From Paraspadella gotoi (taxonomy: Eukaryota > Animalia > Chaetognatha), in the NCBI GenBank assembly GCA_051294375.1, contig CM119264.1:18503354-18567353 (forward strand): DNA of 64,000 nucleotides, read 5' to 3'. Each line of letters starts with the position of its first letter. The first letter of the stretch is position 1. This document shows positions 4,902 through 63,029 of the stretch, piece after piece. The notes beneath the pieces are model-generated. The model was given only the letters and a program-made list of their open reading frames with translations, did not search any database and was not told where the DNA came from. Both the position numbers and the translations under genes were made by a program.

Positions 4902-6070
4902 AAAGATGCTGAAAAGAGAGAAAGGCTATCGAAAATAAAAAGGATGCAGAACCGATTTGATTTGATCGTAAAAAAGCGAGAAAGATTATGATGAAAGAAG
5001 AAAGGCCAGTGAGAGAGTTAATGAGAAGATTCTATTAAAAAGAGAGGGCAAGAGAGTGTCTAATTTTTGATGCGTTGAGCGTGGCAATGATAAGCGTAAT
5101 TGGTACCAATCAAGTTTGATAAAGACAGAGAAATAAGTCGTGGGGAAAAAAACGTGACTAGGCGAGAGTTTCATTAAGCTTTAAGATGACAATTATCTTA
5201 TAATCATAATCTTATAATTATAATAATGATATAATGATATTATTATGATATATAATGATAATCATATAATTATAGTTATTATATATTTAATTACGTTATG
5301 TTTACTTCTTAAGATAGAAAAAGTCAAATACGAAACCAATTTTATTCAATTACAGATGATTGTTCTCAACATCTACGCTCTTCGATGTCTGCTCATTTTT
5401 CAACCACGCCTCAACTCTCAATATCTTCTCCTCCATGTTTCTCAACTTCTCTTCAATCTTTCAATAACTTCTCGTCAACGTCGCCTCCACCTCGTCTCGA
5501 TCCTCCCTACTTCTTCTTATCACGCGTTTTCGACGATAACGATCTTTTTGCTTATGACGAATGAGCTGCGATGATTGATTAATGTCTCGGGTTAAACGAA
5601 ACCATCGACGTGGGCGTCTCTGTAGGCGACGGCGGCGGCGCTGGCGGCGGCGGTGGCGGCGGCGGCGGTGGCGGCATTAATAAACAAGAGGCCGCGGGAG
5701 AGCGGCCTTGATTACAACCGATAATATGAGAGGAGCATTACTATGTTCATGCAAAACCATAGACGACCGAAGCCGCCTTTCCGCAATCGATGACTTTCTC
5801 GGTACCTCCTTCTCCGCAACTCAGTTGTTTAAACTGTCAAGAAATGACGTAAATATCGTCGAATGTCAGACCGTTGTCATTAAGAGTCGTTTCTCTCCGT
5901 TCCCAGTTTTCAGTCACCTCAGCCTCCGGTTTCCCATTTTTTTTCTTTTTCCGCATTTTTTTCCTTTTTTCTCTTTTTTTTCCTTCTCTTTTCTTCCATC
6001 TTAGTTTCCTTTTTTTTCCCCTGTTTTCCCTTCGACGTCGTTTTCGCGCTGCTTGGCCATGAAATGATTC

Positions 6071-39900: not shown

Positions 39901-42900
39901 TCCGGCGCGCCAACGTCGCTACCTCCTCCGCCGGTCCGGCATCCGGAAGATCGATCCAGTCGAGAAGCTCAAATGCCGAGAAATCCGACAGAGTCGAGAA
40001 GTCTGCGGATGCGACTGCAAGGGAGTCTGCAATCCCGAGACTTGCATCTGCGCGCAGAGTAAGTTGGCGGGCGGATGGGTTAGGCGTTTATGAAAAAGAC
40101 TGACTGACTGGATGAATGTAAATATGAAAACTTAAAGAAAACCAAAAAAGTTTAACTTGTTCTTTTTCTTTTAAAGTTCACCATTCTGAAATCATTATCG
40201 AAAGTAATAACAAAATCATTTCATTTTCTATTTAATTTCTATTGGTAGCCATTGTGTTAATCCTTTCGGCTTCGTTGAGTATAGAGATTTAACAAAGTTT
40301 GGAAATGTTTTCGTCAACGATTTTTTATTAATAAAAAATCGTTGACGAAAACATTTCCAAACTTTGTTAAATTAAATATTTAATTTCTATATAATATATA
40401 CATATCATGATCAATTTATTTTAATTATCCCCTATCCCCCAGATCACATAAAATGCCAGGTGGACCGAATGTCGTTCCCCTGCGGCTGCACGAAGGACGG
40501 ATGCGGCAACGTCAACGGTCGCATTGAGTTCAACCCGGTCCGCGTTCGCACCCACTTCATCCACACTCTCATGAGGATGGAGCTGGAGCAGAAGCGGCAG
40601 CACCACGCGGCCCTCGCCGCCGCCAACATGGCCGCCGCCGCCGTTGAGGCCGCTGCCGCCGCTGCCGCCGCTACTTCAGTCTCTCAGCATCAACGGGGCA
40701 TAGGTGGCGTGGGCGCCGGCGCGGGAGGCTACGTGGTCGGTGGAACCGGCGCCGCCCATTCCATGGTGCCGCATCATCAACCGGGGCTGGCCTCCATCAA
40801 CCCTCTGCCGAGAAAGACGGTTACTTTCGCCGACGACGTTGTCGACAAATCCATGGAAAATGTGGTCGGAGGCGGAAGCGGCGCCGCTGCCGCCAACTCG
40901 CTCGTCGACGGCACCGGCCTCTCCTTGTCTTACTCCAACTCGCACCATCCTTTTCCTCACCTCCACCAACAGCAGCAAATGTTGGCAGCGAATCACTCGG
41001 CAGCGGCGTTGAACCACTCTTACGCGAGACTCCACTCTTCGGCAAAACCTTTCATCGAACCGGCCCACCACCATTACAACGCGTTCGCCAATAACGGCGC
41101 CGGCTACCACCACCCGGGTTCCTCGACGCCGCTCATCTATCCGCCGACTCACGCGGCGCGCTTTGACGCCCCGGCAATGAGCCTGATAGGCGCGCCGCCT
41201 GATGTTAGCAGCGCCCACATTGGGTTTTCCGATACGCCCACAAATCTCAGCACGACGCCGCACCATCCCAACGCCGCTGCCTCCTCAATGGTTCCGGGAC
41301 TTTCGGAGTGCGGCGCCGATGGAGCCACGCCCTTCGCCGCGCATTCCATGACGTTCGCCGACTCGGAGGCTTCGGAGCTCAACCTCGCGACGCTCTCTGC
41401 CAACGAGTTGACTTCCTCTTTCGATACGTTCGACAAGAGGATCCTAGATCGAGACGACAATGTCTCCTCCCATCACCTTCATCACCATCACCTTCACCAT
41501 CAACACCACCAGCAACGACAACAGCTTCACCTCCATCATCAACAACAGCAGCTTTCGCATCAACAGCCACCACTTCACCAGCAAGAACACGATCTTCGCC
41601 TCCAACATCACACGCTTCATCGCGATCTCTCTCAAGAGGGGAACGATTCTTTCGCTAACGAAGATCTTCGTCGGGTCGCATCCAGAGGGCGGATCGAAGA
41701 GGAAGACGCGTTCGGTTCGCGGGCGTCGACTTTGGACGCGGGCGGACGATTTGAGGACTCTGAAAACGACGACGTCGTCGTCGGAGTCGCCGACGCGACG
41801 ACGCAGCGCGCCAACGACGACGAGGCGACGGCGACGACCGATGGCGCTCTCGACTACAGATCCGGGGTCAGGATCGACGAGCATCAATCTACCCAAGACC
41901 TAGGGGACGACGGCTTCAGACTCGCGCCCATCGCCGGCCTTTTCGACCGAACAACGCGGGACCCGAGGACGACGACGACGACGACGACCTCGTCGATAGA
42001 ATCTAGTCAAACTCCTTCGACGCCACCGACGACGAACTGCTCGAGCCATCCTGAACAAACTCTTTCCTCGCCATCGTCGATATCTGCCTCCCTCGATTCC
42101 TCTTCAACTTTCTCGTCCAGCGCGGACGCCGCTAACGCGACGATCGACTCCGCTTCGATATCTTCGTCGCCCTCATCCTCGGCCGTGTTCTCCACCACGA
42201 TATCCGCCCGATGTACCGACCAAGCTGCGGCCACCCCGACCGACATGAAAGATCCGACTTCTGATCAACCCGACCCTCGATCGAATCAGTTGGAAGATTT
42301 CGTCGACGAAGATTTCGACGTCGGCGAAGCGAAAGAGGATTTTGGGGGAGAATCGCAGACCGAGGGATTCTCAGAGTCGGCGAAGCTAGAATTTGCCGAG
42401 GAACCCGATGAAGCCGAAAGTCACTCGAAATCTACGCACGAAGCTCAGACCGAAATCCGACGAAGCGCTCAGCCCGACGCCGGGTCGGACTCTCACTCAG
42501 ACGCAATCCACGACGCCGGATCCGAAAACCTGCGACTCAGTTTCGCCGTCGGCTCCTCCGCGACCAACGACGACGGGGACATTGACGAAGACGCCGTCCT
42601 TTTGCCCGACCCCGGATTCCCCGGTTCTCCGAGAATGTCGCCGCCGACGGCCGGCTTGAACGGCGCTTCCAGCGTCGAGTCCGATTCCGGCTTCCGATCG
42701 GCGGACGGAAGCGACACCGACGACTCCGACGTGGGGTCGCCCGATTTGGGCGTCGTCGTTGGAGGCGCGAAGGACGTCGAATCCGGCGACAAGGGAGACG
42801 ACGAAACGGGAGAGATTCGAGTCGCAGACGGCGACGACTTGCAGTCATCGTTTCGCGACAACAAGGGCGACGACGCCGGCGCCGCTTCGGATCCAAGCTG

Positions 42901-43024
42901 CCGAGAAGAGGACGCCGGAAATGGTCGCGTCGCAGGATGCGCGTCAAAAGCGACGTCGACACCGTTGGAGGCTTCGTTCGGCGAGATCATTAAAAAGTCC
43001 ATCGTTGAGGCGGCGTCGGCTTGA
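36924..43024 (+). CDS. CSRNP: Cysteine/serine-rich nuclear protein (CSRNP/Axud1 family transcription factor), multi-exon
   Basis: Exons: ~36924-37772 (acidic, several indel frameshifts), 37925-38650, 38835-38977, 39083-39196, 39275-39385, 39496-39679, 39790-40058, 40443-43024, all GT-AG. The spliced core reads [39 protein letters not shown]...[25 protein letters not shown]...[71 protein letters not shown], the CSRNP_N signature. A long low-complexity C-terminus ends [15 protein letters not shown]. Confidence 0.95.
40287..40372. repeat. Perfect 86-bp palindrome (43-bp arms, no spacer) in last CSRNP intron
   Basis: ATTTAACAAAGTTTGGAAATGTTTTCGTCAACGATTTTTTATT|AATAAAAAATCGTTGACGAAAACATTTCCAAACTTTGTTAAAT. 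Confidence 0.95.
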
Positions 43025-51927: not shown

Positions 51928-52568
51928 TTGATGATAAACATGATATTTTATAGTCAAGACATGGTGCCTTCTATTCGATTATTCCGATAAAAATGAGTGT
52001 TTAAAAAAAAAATAAAACTTGGCGTTCTGGCAACGCTTCGTCGTAATTGTCAATCCGTAATATGACGCTACTTGCAATTACGTAGCGGATCGATTAAAAC
52101 CTAAACCTAATCATTTCTCTGTTTCCTTCATATTAGATTTTTTAGCAGTTTAAATAACAATTGGTTTTTCCAATTTCGTAATAAAAGAGCTGCGCAATAA
52201 CGCTATATTTTACGCTTCTTTTGCACTATTCCGTTTTCTTTAGTATGAACCAAAAAAATACAGAATTTTTTCCGGCAATGCTTGTGAAAATAAAAATGGG
52301 AAACTGGATCAAAGCTCAAGAATGTTTTCTTTATGCAACCGTCTTCCAGTTCTGTATAAAAACGAATCCGCTCATTTTTTCTACAATTCCTAGCTATTGG
52401 TAAAATTTATATCTTTTTTTCCTCGTTTGGCGTCTTTTCATCAAAGGCATGTTTCCTTAAATTTTCCAAAAGTTTATTTATTAAAAAGAATAATTAAATT
52501 TCTGAAATCTGTTTTACAATTACCGCCATCGATATAATGAATTATATTTTTTTTCTTCAGTCGACATC

Positions 52569-52703
52569 ATGATGAGCTTCATGGGAATGATGAGACGACG
52601 CCGTGGAATGCGGTCGTGTCGCGGGGGCGGGGGCGGCGGCGGGCGGCGGTGGCGCCGACGTGGCGGCGGTCGATGCCGAGGAATGTGCCCACTCTTTATG
52701 TGA
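52569..52703 (+). CDS. 44-aa Met/Arg/Gly-rich micropeptide MMSFMGMMRRRRGMRSCRGGGGGGGRRWRRRGGGRCRGMCPLFM
   Basis: GC-rich ORF in AT-rich DNA, directly after the acceptor tttttttcttcag| (52560). TATAAAAA at 52355, possible donor at ~52400, ATTAAA at ~52854. DNA and peptide are homologous to the 59977-60066 ORF. Confidence 0.65.
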   Translation: MMSFMGMMRRRRGMRSCRGGGGGGGRRWRRRGGGRCRGMCPLFM

Positions 52704-54198
52704 TCCTTTCTTGATTTGGGATCGACAATCAACCTGTCTCTGTGTCTACTGCGTAAAGACTAGTACACAATTTCATTGGAAATTGAAATAATTTTGAAAA
52801 ATGTGAAAAATAATATCTGTTGGCGATTGATTGTCAAAAAAAAGCTTTTGTTTATTAAAAAATATCATAATATTATATAACAGACTTTTTTTTCACTAAA
52901 AAAAGAAAAACTAAAAGAAAAAAATATTTTTCAACCAATTCCAAGTTGAAAGTTCAGATTTCAATGACATTTCTGTCGTCCCCAAAAACGTCATTATTGA
53001 CGTCAGAGAAAATCGAGTTGAAATTTCTTTAAATCTTGAGAAGTTCTAAAGAGAAATAATAAATCAGATGATATGAAATGATAAGCATAGTATTCATAAA
53101 AATTTGGCTAGGTAGCTAGTAAAAGCTGATTGAATATATTTTTTAAGGAACCTTAGCTTCTTCTAATTCATAATTAGTTATTGGACTTGGAAATATTAAA
53201 ACTTTACTACTATTTCTTAAGCTAAGGAATCGAAAAAACGTGAAGTAATAAAGACGGAAGTCTCTTATCAATTTTAAAGTGGCAAGAAAAAAGTCGCTGA
53301 TGAGTCCCTCCAGTTTCCTAGGAAACGAAGGAGCGACTGATCAACACCGGATTCGCGGAAAGTATCGTTGAGGTGGGTCATTCGAGTCGAAGGAAGATCG
53401 GATAGGAGGAATTAGATGAAAAAAGTAACCAGTGCTATTTAACGCGATCTGCAATTAATAGAGTTAATGACTATATCAGATAAAGGATTGCCAGCTATGC
53501 CTGTTGCGCATCATTTCACCATAGAGATTTCGAACTCTCACTGAGCCCTTCCGATTTTAGTTCGAAAGAAGATGTTTTTCAAATTAGTATATAAAAAAGT
53601 GTTAAACCTAATATGGTACAGTAAGAAATGGCTCTGGATTCCAGACAGAGATTGACACCTATTTCAGGTTTTAACGTATCGTAAGATGACAACCAACTTA
53701 CGATGAACAAGCGACGTGAAGAAGAGTCAAAGAATTGACAAGAAGGAAGCTTTCGATGACCCAATGATAAGGAACTTAATTCTTTGACGCAGACCGGACA
53801 AAAAGAAGAGGAAGGGGCGGAGGAATTTTCTTGAAAGAATCGCTATCTCTCTCCCGATCTCGCTCGAGATATGGCGTGAAGGAAGGGAGCGACTTAAAAA
53901 GGGGGCGGCGAAGACTGAGGACCCTATTCCACCGTCGAAGGTGAGACAAGACCGACAAGGACGAAGAAAAAACAAATTTCATGATTTTTTTTTTTAATTT
54001 AACGTCCAACAAAAGTAAAACGAACTAAACGATTTGCCCTCGGCAGCGGAACTATCATTGTAAACGAGAATCTCATATTCGGCCTGCGGAATCAAAACAA
54101 AAACAAAAAAACCCCCAAAAATTACTAAACAATCGCCAACGCCGCTAAAACAAAAGAGCGAGGGGTAAATCGGAATTAAATTTTCTTGGGAAGCGAAG

Positions 54199-54547: not shown

Positions 54548-56112
54548 TGATAGAAAATAAGTGAGAGTGAGAGAAACAGAGAGAAACATAAAGAGTCAGC
54601 CTTTGTCGGTATAATGCACTTTCATAATTTAATTGTGAGATTTGTATACCCCTTTGCTTTGCTTCTAGGTTACGCCGAATTAAAAAGTCAGCCCCGGTCA
54701 TAGGTAAGTTATCTGTAAACGTTTTCGTACAAACCATAATGATTGATGGCATCAAAGAGCCTTCATAATTCTGAGATCTTTCTTCCTGGCGGTAAAGTCT
54801 CTCATAGAGGTGCTGCGCCCATTCATACAATGACACTTTGAACGTCTCCTTCTGTCTCCTCCAAATCTCAAGGATCCCTCGATCTCACGGTCGAAGGGCA
54901 AGGGGCCAAAACATTTTCGAATTAATTTTTTTAATATAAAAAATGAGAGACAGCGATCGAAAGATCTCAGCAAATGATAAAAAAGGAATAAGAATAAATG
55001 ATAACGACCTTGATTTATAAACTAAAGGGTCTCTTCTTTCCACTCGAACTCGATCAAAAGGCCATCACGAATGTCACGTGATCCCAAAATAGCAACAATT
55101 TGATATTTTCAACGAATGTCATAGATTTTTCCTCAAAGATGTCCACATATGAATATTTTTTTACAGTATTGAAATTTATAATGTCGTTAGAAAGAATTGT
55201 TCGTTTGTCCCTCCGTGAATGACCCCCGTAAAAGTTCGGGATATAATTTTTTTTATTTCTTGCTAAACAATTTTTGCCTTTTTGCCTTCCCTTCTTTAAA
55301 ATTTCCACTTCAGACGACTACGACGTTGACCTGACGGGCAATTGCCCTCCCCCGCCCGGCGGACCCCACACTTTGGCCACATGCAGCGGGGACGAGTTTT
55401 TCCGTTCCTGCTCGGTCAAGTGCGACTCCGGGTGGGTCTTCCCCGAGCGGACCAACAACTTCGCCTTCAACGTCGAGTGCGACGAGACGGAGGGTGTGTG
55501 GAAGGCCAACGGGGAAAACGCCGCCGTCCCGTTATGCAAAGGTAATTTCGGTGGAAAGAAAGAAAGAAAGGAAAGGGAAACAAGTTTGAGGCAAACAATG
55601 TCGGATCTGCCTACGATAATTAATTAATTAATTGATTAATTAATTAATTAATAGAATTAATTAATTAATTAATAGATTATTAATTAATTAATTAATTTAA
55701 TAGATTAATTATAATTTAATATTCAGCTTGTCATCATCGATGTCCTTAAAATTGAGTCAGGACAGTTATTAAATGTTTTGTTTACATTTTTAAAAAGCAA
55801 ACAAATATCCTCTATGTATCGAGCCAGGCGGGCAAAGCCCGTCCTGTCTAGATTTTTTTTCGGTTTTAGCTTTCGGTCTCGCTTTTTTGCAATCATGGCT
55901 TCTTGAAAGTGTGATATCATAGGGAGTTGAATTTTCATATATGGCTCTAATCATCAAGATCTTTAAAATTCTCATGTTTTCATATCAATATTGGTATTTG
56001 TTTATGTTTTTATTTACATTACATTATTATATGTCGCTCTCTCTCTCTCTCTTTTTCTCCGTCACTGGCTTCTTCTAAAAACGAGTTCCGGCTCTGCAGC
56101 GTCTGTCCAGCT

Positions 56113-56737: not shown

Positions 56738-59700
56738 TTTCACTCATACACGCATTTGTTTGTTTTATTGACTATCATCGCATCCAAATGAATGGACAAT
56801 CATCGCATCAATGAATGACAATCATCGCATCACGTGAATGACATCATCACAGCAGTGAATGACTATCATCGCATCAATAATTGATTATCATCGAATCAAT
56901 AATCAATTCCTATTACATCAATAAATTACTATTACATCAATCAATTAGTATTACCTCAAATCAATTACTAGTACATCAACAATTCGTTATCGCATGATTC
57001 ATTCGTTTTTTTTCCCGGTTTTTTTTCATTAATTTTCTATGATAGTGGGCTCTGGCTCGATCTTGAGTTCTTTTAAAGTTTTTTATTTTAATGTCTCCTT
57101 CTCTCTCTCCTCTCTCTCTCTCACTCTCGTCTCTTCTCTCTCCTTCCTCTCTCTCTCCTCTCTCTCTTCTCTCTCTCTCTCTCGTCTTCTCCTCTCTCTC
57201 TCTCTCTCTTTTTCTATGCAATAAGCGACGATCCTTATGCTTTTAAGATTTTTTTAACTTGCATCATTTTTCAACTTGCATCATTTTTTTCAACTTGCAT
57301 TCCGGTCAAAACTTTATATCTAGCTTCTTCACTCACTTTCCTACCGGCTCACAAAAATTTCATCTCATATCTATCATGGGTTAAAATAAATAAAAAGATT
57401 CAAGTAAATGTGACTCATATTTTTTTTCATTTAAACTCATTTCCACTGGTTACGTTTCCAACTTGAAACTTTATTATCAAGCTTCGTCATAAGTTTTCCT
57501 ACCCACACACAAAATTTCAACTCAATCTATCCATCCAATATTGATTAATAGGAGTATTTATTGGTTAAAATAAGTAAAAAGATTTTAGTAAATTCGACTT
57601 ATGTTTTTTCCATTTAAACTAATTTCCACTCACACGATTCCATCGAAATTTTATATCCAGCTTTATCACACACTTTCCTACCCAACACCAAAATTTTAAT
57701 TCCAATCCAACCAGCCATCACGAGTATGGAGCTTTTTTGCTAAGATGGGACGGATGGACGGATTGATTGACTAAATTAATTAATTATTGATTAATTTTAT
57801 TTACTAATTGATTAATTAACTGATTAATTATTTGATTTATTAATACATCCTGCAGATACATTTAATATAAAAGGAAAAAGAAGCATAATCAATTAGTAAA
57901 ACATGTTTTTTGTTTTTTTCCATTTAAACTCATTTCCACTCAAACTATTCCATCGAAACTTGTATTCCTGTTTCAATCACACACTTTCCTACCCACATAC
58001 AAAATTCCAGGTCAATCAGCCCATCCACTCATGAGCAATTGGTGTTCAAATAGTGAATATATTTTTTTTGTTTTTTCCATTTAAACTCATTTCCACTCGG
58101 ACGATTCCATCGAAACTTAATATCCAGCTCAATCACACACTTACCTATCCACACACAAAATTTTCATAAATCCATCCATCCAATCACGAGTAATTGGTGT
58201 TTTTTGCTAAGGTGGGACGGACGGACGGACGGACGGACGACGGACGGACGGAACGGACGGACGGACGGACGGACGGACGGGTACGGACGGACGGAACGGA
58301 CGGACGGACGGAACGGACGGACGACGAACGACGGGACGGACATTCATTTTTTTGCATAATTTATCATAATTCGATGTTCTGAAACATGATAAATGTGTGC
58401 CCTGACAATATTGGAGGGGGCGGACCGACGGACCGAAAAAGTGAGTTATAAAAAGTGAGTTATAGAGTCGGGATCTGCTGATAAGCAGATCCGACTAAAA
58501 AGGAAAAAAAGAAAAAAGAAAAAAGAAAAAAAGAAAAAAAAGAAAAAAAAAAAAAAAGCAAAATAGCAAAATAGCAAAATAGAAAATAGAAAAAATAGAA
58601 AAATAGAAAAATAGAACATAGAAACAATAGAAAAAAAAGAAATAGAAAAATAGAAAAAAAGAAAAACAAAAACCAATTAAGTTGATCTATTTACAGCCGT
58701 GTGCCCAATCGGCTGTCAAAACGGCGGCACCTGCACGGCTCCTGACGTTTGCACATGCCCGCCGGAATGGACCGGCAAGGACTGTGGAACGCCTGTCCCG
58801 AGGCTCTGCCCGAGGATTTCGGTAAATTTCGTTCGCTGGTTCGAAGCTATTTGGCTGGGAGACAAATGTGTCACGTGTATTTTTTTTTCCTTTTCCCATT
58901 CGAGTTAGTTTTCCTGTTTCTCTCTCGATTTTCCCCCCTCTCTAATCGCCTCCTTCTCCGCCCTCTCATTCTACAGACTCCCATCAACTCCGTCATGACG
59001 GCCCAGTCTGGCCACAAGGTGGGCGCCCGCGCCATCGCCGCCTGCGACCCGGGCTTCTTCTTCCCCAACGGGAAGAGCGTGCTCACTTACGAGTGCGTTA
59101 GCAAATCCACGGGCGGAGAAGGCGTCTGGAAGCCCGTCGAAGGGCAGGGAGACGGGCTGCCCGTCGGAAAGTTCCCGGACAAGTGCGAGAAAGGTGAGCG
59201 CGCTTGGAGATTTTGAAGAAGAAATGAGAAACGTATGTAAAGGAGAGAAGAGATAAGAAGATAGTTCTGGAAGTTGAGATAGGATAAAAGAAGAGAAGAA
59301 AAGAGAAGAGAAGAGAAAAGAACAGAAGAGAAGAGAAGACAAGAGAATAATAAGAAAAGGGTAGAGAAATAAAAAGGAATGGAAGAAAAAAAAAGAAGAA
59401 TAATAAAAAAGGGAGAAAAGAAGAAAATGAGAAAAACTGAAGAGAAGAAAGTTGTAATACAAAAAAAAGGAAGTGAAGATAAGAAAAAAAAAGTTAAAAA
59501 TAAACAAGCATGGGTGGTCTTCAAAGAATATTTGACTATTAATAACTACTACTTAAAATCTAAAACTGTAATCAATTTTATTGACTGATTAAAAATGAAT
59601 TAAGAAGCATTTTTTTATCTATAATTTAATTATATTGATTGATAAGAGCAAATGAAGAAGCAACAGAAGCGAACTAGAGACACAAAAGTTACCAAAAATA

Positions 59701-61112
59701 AATTTAAAAAAATAATTTAAAAACATTTTGGAAGCTAGATGACGAGTCGTGTCGTTTTTGAGGTACAAAAGAATATTCTCAAGCTTCTTTCTTCGCAGTT
59801 TATTCTTGACAAAGTTCCTACGACTTCTTATTTTATGTTCATTGTTCACATTCTCCATGAAGATGTGAGAATCGTTCACGGAAAATTAGTTTTAGAATGA
59901 AATCTTCTCTCTCGATTCTCGGCTTGTTGCGTTGCTCTTTTGTCTTCTGTATTTCTTTACTGTTGCAAGATGTCGCTCACATCATGCCGCAGCCGCCGCC
60001 GCCGCCGCCGCCTCGACGCCCGCGGCGTCTTCCTCCACGACGGCGTCGTCCCATCATTCCCATCATGGTTCTGTGATAAAAAGGAAGGGAAACAAAATGG
60101 CATTCAAAGCGATGATGAGCTGAGTGAGGATTTCAATTTTTTTTTATCTCCAACTCAATTTCAAGATAAAACAAAAAAGTTTATAATTAACTTTATTTTA
60201 AGTCAAAAGAAATAATAGTATTTTAAAAACTTTAACAGCATTTCAAGCGAAGTTGAACCATGTATGTAAATTTGACTTACCTGAAGGTTTTTCGAGTTGG
60301 TTGGTAAAAACGATTAAGTTTTCTTGGTCGAATCTCACGTTTTATTTCGAACCATTTCTCGTCCCTTTATATACCCTCTCCCTGTTTGGTTCATTGAATT
60401 TAGTTTCACCGAATAAACATTCCTGCTTATACAGGCGATCTCAAGGAAAACAAATGAAGATTTGGTTCTTGCAATCTTGCAATATCTTTGTCTCTTACCT
60501 GTGTTTTCGTAACCTAAAGTCTAGTTTCCTTTTCATTTCTTTATCTACGTGTATTATATTTTTACGAAAATGAATTTATTTGTATTATACTGTTTGCGCA
60601 TTTGGCGGAATAGATTTTTAATTGTCGAGGATAATCTAGATTACGTCATTGAAAGATTATGAGATAAGGGCAAGAAGTCGAGCTTCGTAAATATGTTTAT
60701 ATTTTATGCTGTACGGTGTAGTATTAATACTTTACGTAAGAACCAGTACAAATTTGGTTTTTAAAAGTGAAATTATTCTTTTTTTTATCTCAGCTTTCTG
60801 CGATCCTCCCTGTATGAACGGCGGTGTCTGCGTCGGGGCGGACCGGTGTCGCTGCCCAGATGGTTTTCGCGGCCCCAAATGCCAGTTTGCGCTTCAGGAC
60901 TGCGAGTGTCCAGTGGCGCCAAGAAACGGTTCCGTCCTCAAACACTTTTCTGATGATGGAGAAGTCACCTTCTGTTCGTTTCAATGCGCAGCAGGGTTCG
61001 TGCCAAGTGGGATCAACACGGTAAGATCGACGGGAAGGACAAGGATTGGATGGGTATGGGGGCAAGAAGAAAAGAGTCTGAAGAATGGAGCTGGGAGATC
61101 CAGTCTCTCTCT

Positions 61113-61178
<66 letters not shown>

Positions 61179-62836
61179 CTTTTTATTTCTCACTATTATT
61201 TTTTTTTTCATTAAACCAGGAATTTAACTGTAGAGAGGATGGAAAATGGCATCCTGCAATTAGCAACTTTCCACGATGTGATCGGATAACGTCTACAACC
61301 ACGACAACGACGACAAGGCCCCCAACGCCCCCAACGCCGTCGACCCCGACTCCTCCAAAGTCGGACGGCTATTGCGCCACGTGGTGTGGCGCCAATTACC
61401 GCACTTTCGACGCGAAACGCTACAGCTTCAACGGGAAATGTCGCTATGTTTTGGCCAAGGACTGCGTCGACGAATCTTTCGAGATTCAAATCGTCAACGA
61501 TCCTCTGTGAGTTCTTGTGGTTGTTGTTATTCTTGTGGTTGTTGTTTCTTCTTTTAGACTTGTTCACTTATTTTCCTTCCACTAGATGCGACGAGGGTTC
61601 CGATTGTCACCGGGCCTTGGTGATCAAGGCCGGCTCAACCACGTTGCACCTTGAATACTCCGAGGGCCTCGTCAGGGTCGCCAACCACATCAGTACCTAC
61701 AGCATTCCTTATATAGACAACAATATGGAGATTCACGAGGTGCGACTTCGCTAAATATTTTTTAATTTACAAATTCATAACCTTGAAAGTCATACATTAT
61801 TTAATAAGCAATCATTAACGACATCAATCAGGTATAGTCAATTTTTTTAACAGGTCGGATCAATGGTCGAAGTATCGGATGATTTAGGATTCCAAATTAT
61901 ATGGGACAAGAAAGAATTTGTATCGATTCAATTGACGAATGAAAACCTCAGGTGAGGGCAGAGATTTTTCTCTCGTAATGACAAAAGAGCCGTGAATTAA
62001 TTTCAACAACTTTTAAAGTAATTTGTTTTGCTTATTTTTTTTCTAATAAAATTATTTCCTTAATTGATGTCCTGCATCAGATCAAAGATGTGCGGACTTT
62101 GCGGCAACTTCGATGGTTTGTCCAGCAACGACTTTAAGACGATGGATGGAGCCGACGCTCCGACCGCCATCGATTACGGCGTCTCTTGCAAAGTTCCTGG
62201 AAATAAAGGTCAGATAGTACAAATAAGAACTTTTAAAGTAAAATATTAAGTGTTTTAGCCAAATTTCGTTTATTTTCTCATTAGATTGTGACGATAAGGC
62301 GGTGGCTTCTTACTGCAACGACGACAAACGTGCACAAGCGAGAAAAGTTTGCGACAATCTTAAAGGCGGAAACTTCACAAGTAAGCCAGTCGTCATTGCT
62401 TCGGGTGATGTTTCTAAAACTTTTTACCTTCTCACTTTTTTTTCCAGAATGCAACGACATTGTCTCCCCTGATAATTTCATGGAGACCTGCATCGAGTCT
62501 CACTGTCACTATGGCGACGACGGGCGAAATCTTTTCGCCGCCTGCTGCGCCTTTGAGGCTTACGTCCGAGAGTGCTCGAGAAAAGGAGGCAAAGTACCCG
62601 ACGAAAGCTCATGGAGAAACGAGGACTTTTGCCGTAAGTAATAAAAGTTTTTTATTAAAAAAAAAAACATGTTCCAATATTTTAGGAAAACTGTTAGTGA
62701 ACTTCTGAATTCACTCCTTTGTTCTCCGCAGCGGGCAAGTGTCCGTCGGGTCAAATCTACGATGACTGCGGATCGAACTGCGTTGCAACTTGCGACAACC
62801 AGAACAGTAAATGCAGCAACACTGAATGCGTTGAAG
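54199..62836 (+). CDS. Hemolectin/hemocytin-like (vWF-related) secreted protein, 5' part; continues beyond window
   Basis: Phase-consistent GT-AG exons: 54199-54293 (signal MALTARSLAVICVCAAVIISSLSQSTEA), 54669-54703, 55314-55541 (Sushi-like), 58697-58821 (EGF), 58977-59193 (Sushi-like), 60794-61020 (EGF CDPPCMNGGVC...CPDGFRGPKCQ), 61220-61506 (Thr/Pro linker, VWD start YRTFD...C.YVL), 61586-61739, 61854-61951, 62081-62208 (MCGLCGNFDG), 62285-62380, 62448-62633 (C8), 62732-62836 (TIL). Confidence 0.88.
56222..56296 (-). repeat. tRNA-derived SINE-like head
   Basis: The minus strand has an A-box-like TGGCGCCGCACGTAGCG and a B-box-like CCCGGGTTCGCGCCC; no convincing cloverleaf. Confidence 0.35.
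57220..58500. mobile_element. Non-autonomous Helitron/Helentron-like (DINE-1-like) element
   Basis: Four to five diverged ~180-bp internal repeats (catttaaactcatttccact...tccatcgaaactt...cactttcctacccacac.caaaattt) and (GGAC)n tracts at ~57748 and 58214-58340. A terminal hairpin AGTCGGGATCTGCT-gata-AGCAGATCCGACT (58466-58496) precedes an A-run. The left boundary is uncertain. Confidence 0.6.
59977..60066 (-). CDS. 29-aa Met/Arg/Gly-rich micropeptide MMGMMGRRRRGGRRRGRRGGGGGGGCGMM, nested antisense in hemolectin intron
   Basis: Minus-strand layout: TATATAAAG (60373-60365); UTR exon ending CAG|gtaagt (60281); intron 60280-60071 ending ctttttatcacag|; aaccATG start; AATAAA at 59804-59799. Paralogous to 52569-52703. 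Confidence 0.72.
   Translation of the reverse strand: MMGMMGRRRRGGRRRGRRGGGGGGGCGMM
60365..60373 (-). promoter_or_regulatory. TATA box of nested micropeptide gene
   Basis: TATATAAAG lies ~85-90 bp upstream of a consensus donor, implying a ~55-60-nt first exon. Confidence 0.55.
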
Positions 62837-63029
62837 GTAGGAGCGAAGTAGATTTCTTAAAGGATGAAATACTTCTTTATTTATTATCGCTGTGAAGAGA
62901 CAGTTATTATTGTTATGTCACTTATGTGTTAGTGACAAAACCGTTCAATATAAGCAGTCTCTGAGTTTCGGATCAGGCTGTAACACCCGTGTTACAGGCG
63001 GGTTAAGCGCCCCGTCCCTCTTATCTGCT

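Follow-up and report, generated by a model that had tools for sequence, protein, structure and literature searches.

Small GTPases of the K-Ras4B type carry a membrane-targeting tail in which a polybasic stretch is combined with a CaaX box, and methionine at the X position of this box is preferred by farnesyltransferase. Characterized micropeptides encoded by small open reading frames (smORFs) of animals are mostly transmembrane helices or conserved short motifs, and typical protamines are much richer in arginine than 30%. Methionine clusters of the MxxM/MxM type are known as Cu(I) ligands in copper transporters. Here, we describe a stretch of 64,000 nucleotides (nt) from the chaetognath Paraspadella gotoi (contig CM119264.1, positions 18,503,354 to 18,567,353), hereafter the window, with two short open reading frames (ORFs), A and B. 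They encode Arg/Gly/Met-rich peptides of 44 and 29 amino acids and lie on opposite strands, approximately 7.4 kb apart. Gene A very probably represents a genuine spliced mini-gene, of which gene B is the one paralog. If translated, the pair would represent a lineage-restricted micropeptide family that is invisible to homology-based annotation, with an extreme composition of about 30% Arg, 30-45% Gly and about 20% Met.

Two related reading frames and their gene structures

ORF A starts with an ATG and encodes a peptide running from MMSF to CPLFM (135 nt with the stop codon), and ORF B encodes a peptide running from MMGMMG to CGMM (90 nt with the stop codon). A preliminary description of this DNA had noted a sequence shared by both, ATGGGAATGATG(A/G)GACGACGCCGT, a run of seven Gly, a Cys near the terminal Met, a difference in length of 45 nt that preserves the frame, and flanks that are not obviously alignable. 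All of these observations are confirmed. The shared sequence, a block of 24 nt, has exactly two matches in the 64 kb, one in each ORF (Table 1), where chance leads to an expectation of 0.00 matches (mean of 100 dinucleotide shuffles, even with up to 3 mismatches allowed). It is identical between A and B in 23 of the 24 positions and, unlike the Gly/Arg core of the peptides, it is non-repetitive. Each peptide contains exactly seven consecutive Gly. The Cys near the end occupies the fifth position from the C-terminus in A (CPLFM) and the fourth in B (CGMM). Local alignment of one ORF against the other gives a z score of 8.5 (300 shuffles), and the flanks give -0.4 (300 nt upstream) and 0.2 (300 nt downstream). 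Similarly, blastn aligns 52581-52649 with 60063-59993 (78% over 74 nt) and finds no match in the flanks; the remaining matches of both gene regions are microsatellites and a few chance matches of 14-27 nt elsewhere in the window.

Other features set the two ORFs apart from the rest of the window. When both strands were searched for the pattern YYNYAG, followed by up to 12 nt and ATGATG, A and B were the sole matches (two out of two). Among the 369 ATG-initiated ORFs of at least 25 amino acids, a single one ends in CxxM (B) and a single one in CxxxM (A). As such ends belong only to B and A, a Cys close to the terminal Met can be considered a trait of the family. No third MGMM-type copy was found by tblastn in the 64-kb window.

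The similarity of A and B is partly low complexity. The Gly/Arg core is of a (GGC)n/(CGN)n-like nature, and blastn pairs it as well with unrelated microsatellites near 5640, 32720, and 35500. All three forward frames are open across the GC-rich core, so the openness of the frame is no evidence by itself. In the MAFFT protein alignment of A and B the gaps fall on whole residues; gapped DNA alignments of the two do carry single-base gaps, and the preservation of the frame therefore rests on the lengths of the ORFs and on the openness of both frames. A third candidate member, the Arg/Trp-rich ORF at 5582-5680 (copied near 690-790), was rejected, as it consists of a (GGC)n tract within a duplicated segment and lacks both the MGMM start and the acceptor. 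The segment itself occurs in near-identical copies at 560-900 and 5450-5800 (+), approximately 4.9 kb apart, in which the (GGC)n encodes either a 32-residue Arg/Trp ORF or poly-Gly, depending on the frame; these ORFs are unrelated to the MGMM family.

Both ORFs had been described as preceded by a splice acceptor, and a pyrimidine tract followed by AG is indeed located 8 nt (A, ttcttcag/tcgacatcATG) or 4 nt (B, tatcacag/aaccATG) upstream of the ATG. For gene A, the predicted acceptor appears to be used, as the joint of a contig ends exactly there. This contig of 330 nt (depth 3.8) derives from one public run (X1) of one study, presumed to be RNA, which was examined over 52000-53400. It joins 52403-52444 directly to 52559-52823, skipping 114 nt, with two letters ambiguous at the joint; a shift of +2 at this joint results in an intron at 52447-52560 with GC..AG ends. 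Within ORF A, the sole difference between contig and assembly is 52631 G>C, which changes GGG to GGC (both Gly), numbers too small to address purifying selection. In exon 1, 2 of the 42 letters differ (52403-52444), and the part at 52559-52823 shows one changed letter in all and 23 letters inserted at 52754-52759, all in the 3' untranslated region (UTR). We read the contig as a spliced transcript of another individual or of a close relative. In this assembly, the intron of gene A would belong to the rare GC..AG class, and the contig comes from a slightly different genome, whose donor may differ.

Taken together with the signals that can be read around ORF B, these data reveal an architecture common to both genes: a TATA box, an ATG-free exon 1 of approximately 60 nt, a short intron in the 5' UTR, and an ORF that starts at the first AUG with an A at position -3. 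This architecture is found without sequence similarity outside the ORF. The coordinates of the individual features are listed in Table 1.

Table 1. Features of genes A and B, in coordinates of the window.
Feature	Positions	Strand	Remarks
Gene A, TATA-like box TATAAAAA	52355..52362	+	Some 25-30 nt upstream of the expected start of transcription; read from the sequence, position inferred
Gene A, exon 1, non-coding, no ATG	52385..52446	+	5' end estimated; 52403-52444/6 present in the contig
Gene A, intron, 114 nt, GC..AG	52447..52560	+	Donor AAAG/GCATGT, acceptor TTCTTCAG/; contig joint
Gene A, exon 2	52561..52823	+	As far as the contig reaches; contains the complete ORF, followed by 120 nt or more of 3' UTR
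ORF A	52569..52703	+	First ATG of the spliced model; A at -3
Shared 24-nt block in A	52581..52604	+	Codons 5-12, MGMMRRRR; pattern search
Gene A, ATTAAA, possible poly(A) signal	52854..52859	+	Read from the sequence; AATAAT-type variants at ~52787 and ~52808
Gene B, TATA box TATATAAA	60366..60373	-	Read from the sequence, inferred
Gene B, exon 1, predicted, non-coding	60281..60343	-	No ATG after the expected start; donor CTTCAG/GTAAGT at 60281/60280
Gene B, intron, predicted, 210 nt, GT..AG	60071..60280	-	Acceptor TATCACAG/ at 60071; read from the sequence
Shared 24-nt block in B	60040..60063	-	Codons 2-9, MGMMGRRR; pattern search
ORF B	59977..60066	-	First AUG of the mRNA model; A at -3
Gene B, AATAAA poly(A) signal, predicted	59800..59805	-	Read from the sequence

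Composition, relatives and C-termini of the peptides

Peptide A has an isoelectric point (pI) of 12.0 and a charge of +12.5, and its 44 residues include 13 Arg, 13 Gly, 8 Met, and 3 Cys. For peptide B the pI is likewise 12.0 and the charge +8.5, with 9 Arg, 13 Gly, 6 Met, and 1 Cys in 29 residues. Acidic residues are absent from both. Arg accounts for 30% (A) and 31% (B) of the residues and Gly for 30-45%; Met reaches 18-21%, compared to 1.2% in the 1970 codons of eight neighboring exon-like frames. The peptides have a common layout, with a Met-rich N-terminus (MMSFMGMM in A, MMGMMG in B), Arg clusters (four Arg after the Met-rich start in A, four plus further ones in B), the Gly7 run and a Cys-containing, hydrophobic C-terminus that ends in Met. 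An AlphaFold2 model of A, made without an alignment, has a mean pLDDT of 54.4 and a weak helix at residues 4-15 only, which is consistent with disorder. A secreted antimicrobial peptide or neuropeptide precursor was considered and rejected as a leading idea: the N-terminus consists of eight mildly hydrophobic residues followed by four Arg, which we read as no signal peptide.

Searches for relatives returned no homolog. A word-indexed search of a library of 5.8 billion proteins gave no candidate with A; with the alignment of A and B, 2563 candidates from the same library were scored, none of them at E <= 10. A HMMER profile had no matches at E <= 0.001 among 1,835,955,588 representatives, and the ESM Atlas contained no usable match for the peptides. 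No Pfam family, including protamine, RNA-binding, and metal-binding families, matched either peptide at E <= 10, and the single match among the PDB sequences (ribosomal uL4, E = 1) is noise. At the nucleotide level, no Rfam covariance model reached its gathering score anywhere in the window, and viral contigs held no match to the degenerate 24-mer. When the metagenome contigs of JGI were scanned with the same 24-mer, three loci were found, all unrelated, and a Gly run or a Cys..Met end was present in none of the three. Two of these were rejected as relatives as they represent one bacterial-looking gene with a ribosome-binding site, encoding MGMMRRRRRRR followed by a hydrophobic stretch, and the third as an internal chance match. 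The bacterial-looking gene is a chance match to the 24-mer as well (L001 527-550, L002 601-624, - strand). Four peptide strings occurred in none of approximately 8.4 million full texts, and a keyword search of the literature on similar peptides yielded, among the matches listed, only unrelated reviews. For low-complexity queries of 29-44 residues such negatives are weak, and small ORFs are rarely called in the source collections, so the searches do not establish an absence of relatives.

With CGMM, peptide B ends in a four-residue CaaX box of canonical length, with Met at X and the Cys at position -4. Peptide A (CRGMCPLFM) has Cys at -5 and -9 and none at the canonical -4. Both peptides end in Met, which is among the X residues favorable for farnesyltransferase (Met, Ser, Gln, Ala, and Cys). 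At a2, B has Met and A has Phe, both uncharged, and it is charged a2 residues that are not tolerated by farnesyltransferase (PMC10320760). In the same study, a Ydj1-CXXX screen in yeast, with the yeast enzyme, lists CGMM with an enrichment of 1.49. The benchmarks are 1.608 (CASQ) and 1.627 for farnesylated non-canonical sequences, and 0.406 (CVIA, the CaaX box of a-factor) and 0.494 for canonical controls. In the Ras heat-map (Ras_HM), CGMM scores 8.26, compared to 19.4 for CVIM, 4.87 for CASQ, and 0.45 for CGGG (PMC10320760). These scores and the canonical length make B a plausible substrate for farnesyltransferase.

The preliminary description had passed over CGMM, the stronger candidate for prenylation, and had proposed CPLFM of A as a C(x)3X motif instead. 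The length of this motif is in agreement with the proposal, as pentapeptides can be farnesylated, CMIIM and CSLMQ among them, and their reactivity tracks the Ras_HM of the tetrapeptide that remains when the residue after the Cys (a0) is removed, with r = 0.84 (PMC11121372). For CPLFM this tetrapeptide is CLFM, with a moderate Ras_HM of 10.65. The weak part of the proposal is the Pro next to the Cys, as a0 appears to tolerate a narrow set of residues. The a0 hits in the pentapeptide libraries are C, S, and V for the yeast enzyme and I for the rat enzyme (PMC11121372, Tables 2-4), and Pro is not listed there. A Ca0IIM library incubated with the rat enzyme at 10 uM is given with no a0 hits, and an earlier CMIIM library with the yeast enzyme is stated to have given hits at all positions (PMC11121372). 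Overall, prenylation seems reasonable for B and doubtful for A; with respect to farnesylation specifically, we regard it as a tentative possibility for B and as improbable for A.

Proposed membrane association and other explanations

We propose, with a probability of roughly 0.3, that A and B are disordered and strongly cationic micropeptides, rich in Arg, Gly and Met, that bind acidic membranes peripherally, B being helped by farnesylation of its CGMM end. The Arg clusters and the hydrophobic, Met/Phe/Cys-rich ends would bind acidic membranes, and the Gly7 run would be a flexible spacer between the Arg clusters and the Cys-containing C-terminus. Farnesylated B would resemble a free-standing membrane tail of the polybasic-plus-farnesyl type, and the C-terminus of A (GMCPLFM), which is hydrophobic in itself, may anchor the peptide without a lipid. 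A more speculative form of this proposal, to which we attach a low likelihood, is that the products are "tail-only" lipid-anchor peptides of 29-44 residues, in which polyarginine and polyglycine end in a prenylatable Cys-x-x-Met, like a K-Ras-type tail without the protein. If so, they might compete for or organize patches of acidic lipids or the prenyl-processing machinery. Translation of the ORFs into functional peptides is in our view slightly favored. Across a change in length of 15 codons, A and B have retained the start, the stop, the frame and the C-terminal Cys..Met, and the fact that the ORF opens with the first AUG in both mRNA models argues for translation.

Several observations weigh against membrane-binding peptides and against parts of the evidence beneath them. 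Membrane binding is proposed from composition and from analogies, and no ortholog was found in any of the libraries searched. The run behind the joined contig is only presumed to be RNA, such that the contig could still reflect a DNA copy that lacks the intron, or an allele with a deletion, and its depth is low and its origin a single study. As for the C-termini, the Pro after the Cys in A is absent from the hits mentioned above, and MAFFT pairs the CaaX Cys of B with Cys36 of A and not with Cys40; on this alignment, canonical spacing is not conserved in A, where CPLF looks like an insertion that breaks it. The in-frame changes in length could be the result of triplet slippage, as the Gly/Arg runs are of the (GGC)n/(CGN)n type that is common in the window. 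Finally, none of the five degenerate third positions of the 24-nt block has changed between A and B, including the order CGA-CGC-CGT, and this codon pattern appears to point at least as much to constraint at the nucleotide level as to selection on the peptide.

The latter point also supports the explanation in which the transcripts are real and the peptide is not the selected product. The 24-nt block would then act at the RNA or DNA level, for instance by binding a protein or controlling translation; alternatively, the ORFs would be young, neutral by-products of GC-rich triplet repeats. We judge this explanation possible, though well short of probable. The preliminary description had argued for selection on the peptide, but a block without synonymous change fits nucleotide-level constraint equally well. 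The only difference in the block is non-synonymous (AGA Arg versus GGA Gly), compared to synonymous differences in three of the seven codons of the Gly7 run. Unchanged degenerate sites between randomized flanks suggest that the nucleotide sequence is itself constrained to some extent, or that codon preference is very strong. The three open frames over the GC-rich core, the frequent (GGC)n and (CGN)n tracts in the window and the lack of a homolog in the libraries searched are in line with this explanation, and so is the predicted fold of gene B exon 2, which is better than that of all 200 shuffles (z = -3.64). A main element of that fold, however, is a long hairpin at 59850-59886 (-), located in the 3' UTR and not common to gene A, for which exon 2 shows no significant RNA fold (z = -1.25). 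A comparison of the folds of exon 2 revealed no RNA structure common to A and B, and the lack of an Rfam match also argues against an element of this kind. Two further points are likewise difficult to reconcile with it: in both mRNA models the ORF opens with the first AUG, which has A at -3, and start, stop, Gly7, and the Cys near the terminal Met are retained where UTRs, intron, and promoter have diverged beyond recognition.

Among the explanations that do assume a peptide product, A and B could be binders or condensers of nucleic acids of the protamine, arginine-rich-motif or RGG type, acting in male germ cells or nucleoli, with Arg binding, Cys cross-linking, and Gly providing flexibility. 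The size of 29-44 residues, the pI of 12, Arg runs of 3-4, one to three Cys and the small one-intron genes are compatible with this function, and insect sperm basic proteins can have 40-60 residues and be rich in arginine, sometimes contain cysteine and are poorly annotated (PMC12216123). We nevertheless consider it unlikely. An Arg content of 30-31% is well below that of typical protamines and is accompanied by 30-45% Gly, the Met content and the hydrophobic Met/Phe/Leu ends are no protamine features, and neither Pfam nor the PDB sequences gave a match to a protamine or RNA-binding family. The clustering of Met at both ends, together with Cys, could also suggest peptides that bind a metal such as Cu(I) or sense redox state, but there is no His, the highly cationic Arg core would repel metal cations and no metal-binding Pfam family was matched, which makes this explanation very improbable. 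We see equally little reason to regard the motif as part of a high-copy repeat or transposon with incidental ORFs. Although the core is partly microsatellite-like and the copy counts cover the 64-kb window only, the window holds two copies; both are intact, and a TATA box, a 5' exon, and an intron are present separately in each. Neither copy has terminal inverted or long direct repeats at its flanks, where the only pairs are short, AT-rich ones attributable to chance, and the 24-mer scans yielded nothing among viral contigs and just the three unrelated loci in the JGI metagenomes.

Locus context and comparison with known systems

The preliminary description had placed the pair at a hemolectin locus. 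Exons on the forward strand that match EGF (58681-58905 and 60691-61224), VWD (61082-61507 and 62064-62246), C8 (62285-62638), and TIL (62701-62892) identify a vWF/hemolectin-like gene, in agreement with that view. Gene B lies antisense within an intron of this gene, between its two EGF exons. Of the small gene family that had been suggested to flank and occupy the locus, two homologous genes in opposite orientation, with B inside, are supported, with no further member in the window. An isolated GC-rich and Cys-rich exon is present at 55313-55542 (+), with a clean acceptor (cacttcag/) and donor (/gtaattt), and Pfam gave it no match at E <= 0.01. This exon may belong to the upstream part of the hemolectin-like gene, which would place gene A about 2.6 kb upstream of it, on the same strand.

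Other neighbors include a CSRNP_N exon at 40376-43021 and a LRR/PAN gene at 46.6-48.5 kb. The 882 residues encoded by the CSRNP exon match proteins of birds, insects, mites, mollusks, and others over the conserved domain only (5-19% of the query). The region is dense in simple repeats, (GGAC)n, (TAATTAAT)n and purine-rich (GAA/GAG)n, at 58205-58340 (+), 55615-55710 (+), and 59240-59350 (+). Together with these repeats, 11 runs of N (1343 bases) mark a draft assembly that is rich in microsatellites.

The A/B pair is so far a two-member observation in a single genome. It provides a compact test case for low-complexity, triplet-repeat-rich DNA turning into a gene, and B is a directly testable candidate for the smallest prenylated (CaaX) product of an animal gene. 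Should the constraint act on the 24-nt block alone, that block would be an RNA- or DNA-level element common to two otherwise unrelated mini-transcripts. Neither outcome, peptide or nucleotide element, would overturn current understanding.

When compared with described systems, each shows part of the features of A and B. As in protamines and sperm nuclear basic proteins, a small product with Arg clusters and occasional Cys is encoded by a mini-gene with one intron, in a group characterized by rapid evolution and poor annotation (PMC12216123). In contrast to protamines, A and B combine about 30% Arg with 30-45% Gly and about 20% Met and have hydrophobic termini. Lineage-restricted smORF micropeptides of animals are similar in having an ORF of less than 50 codons on a short spliced mRNA of its own and in being missed by homology searches, but A and B are low-complexity polycations without detectable relatives. 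The precursors of fungal lipopeptide pheromones of the a-factor type are also encoded by free-standing ORFs of a few dozen codons and have a CaaX box at their C-terminus. However, the a-factor family is fungal, is not rich in Arg or Gly, undergoes processing and uses a dedicated ATP-binding cassette (ABC) transporter for export, whereas the window is metazoan, with CSRNP_N, VWD, C8, and TIL exons.

Other parallels concern the proposed membrane association. The effector domain of MARCKS is a short, highly basic stretch, predicted to be disordered like A and B, with hydrophobic residues able to insert at the bilayer interface. There is no sequence similarity between them, and the hydrophobic residues of A and B are mostly Met and located at both ends instead of being interspersed, in a stand-alone product. 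For the tails of K-Ras4B-type GTPases, differences are found in the basic residues, which are Arg and not Lys in B, and in the seven Gly between the basic cluster and the Cys. In A, the five-residue CPLFM end with Pro after the Cys deviates further. The whole 29-residue product of B would correspond to the tail, with no GTPase or other domain attached, and it shares with K-Ras4B-type tails a basic cluster upstream of a C-terminal Cys-x-x-Met.

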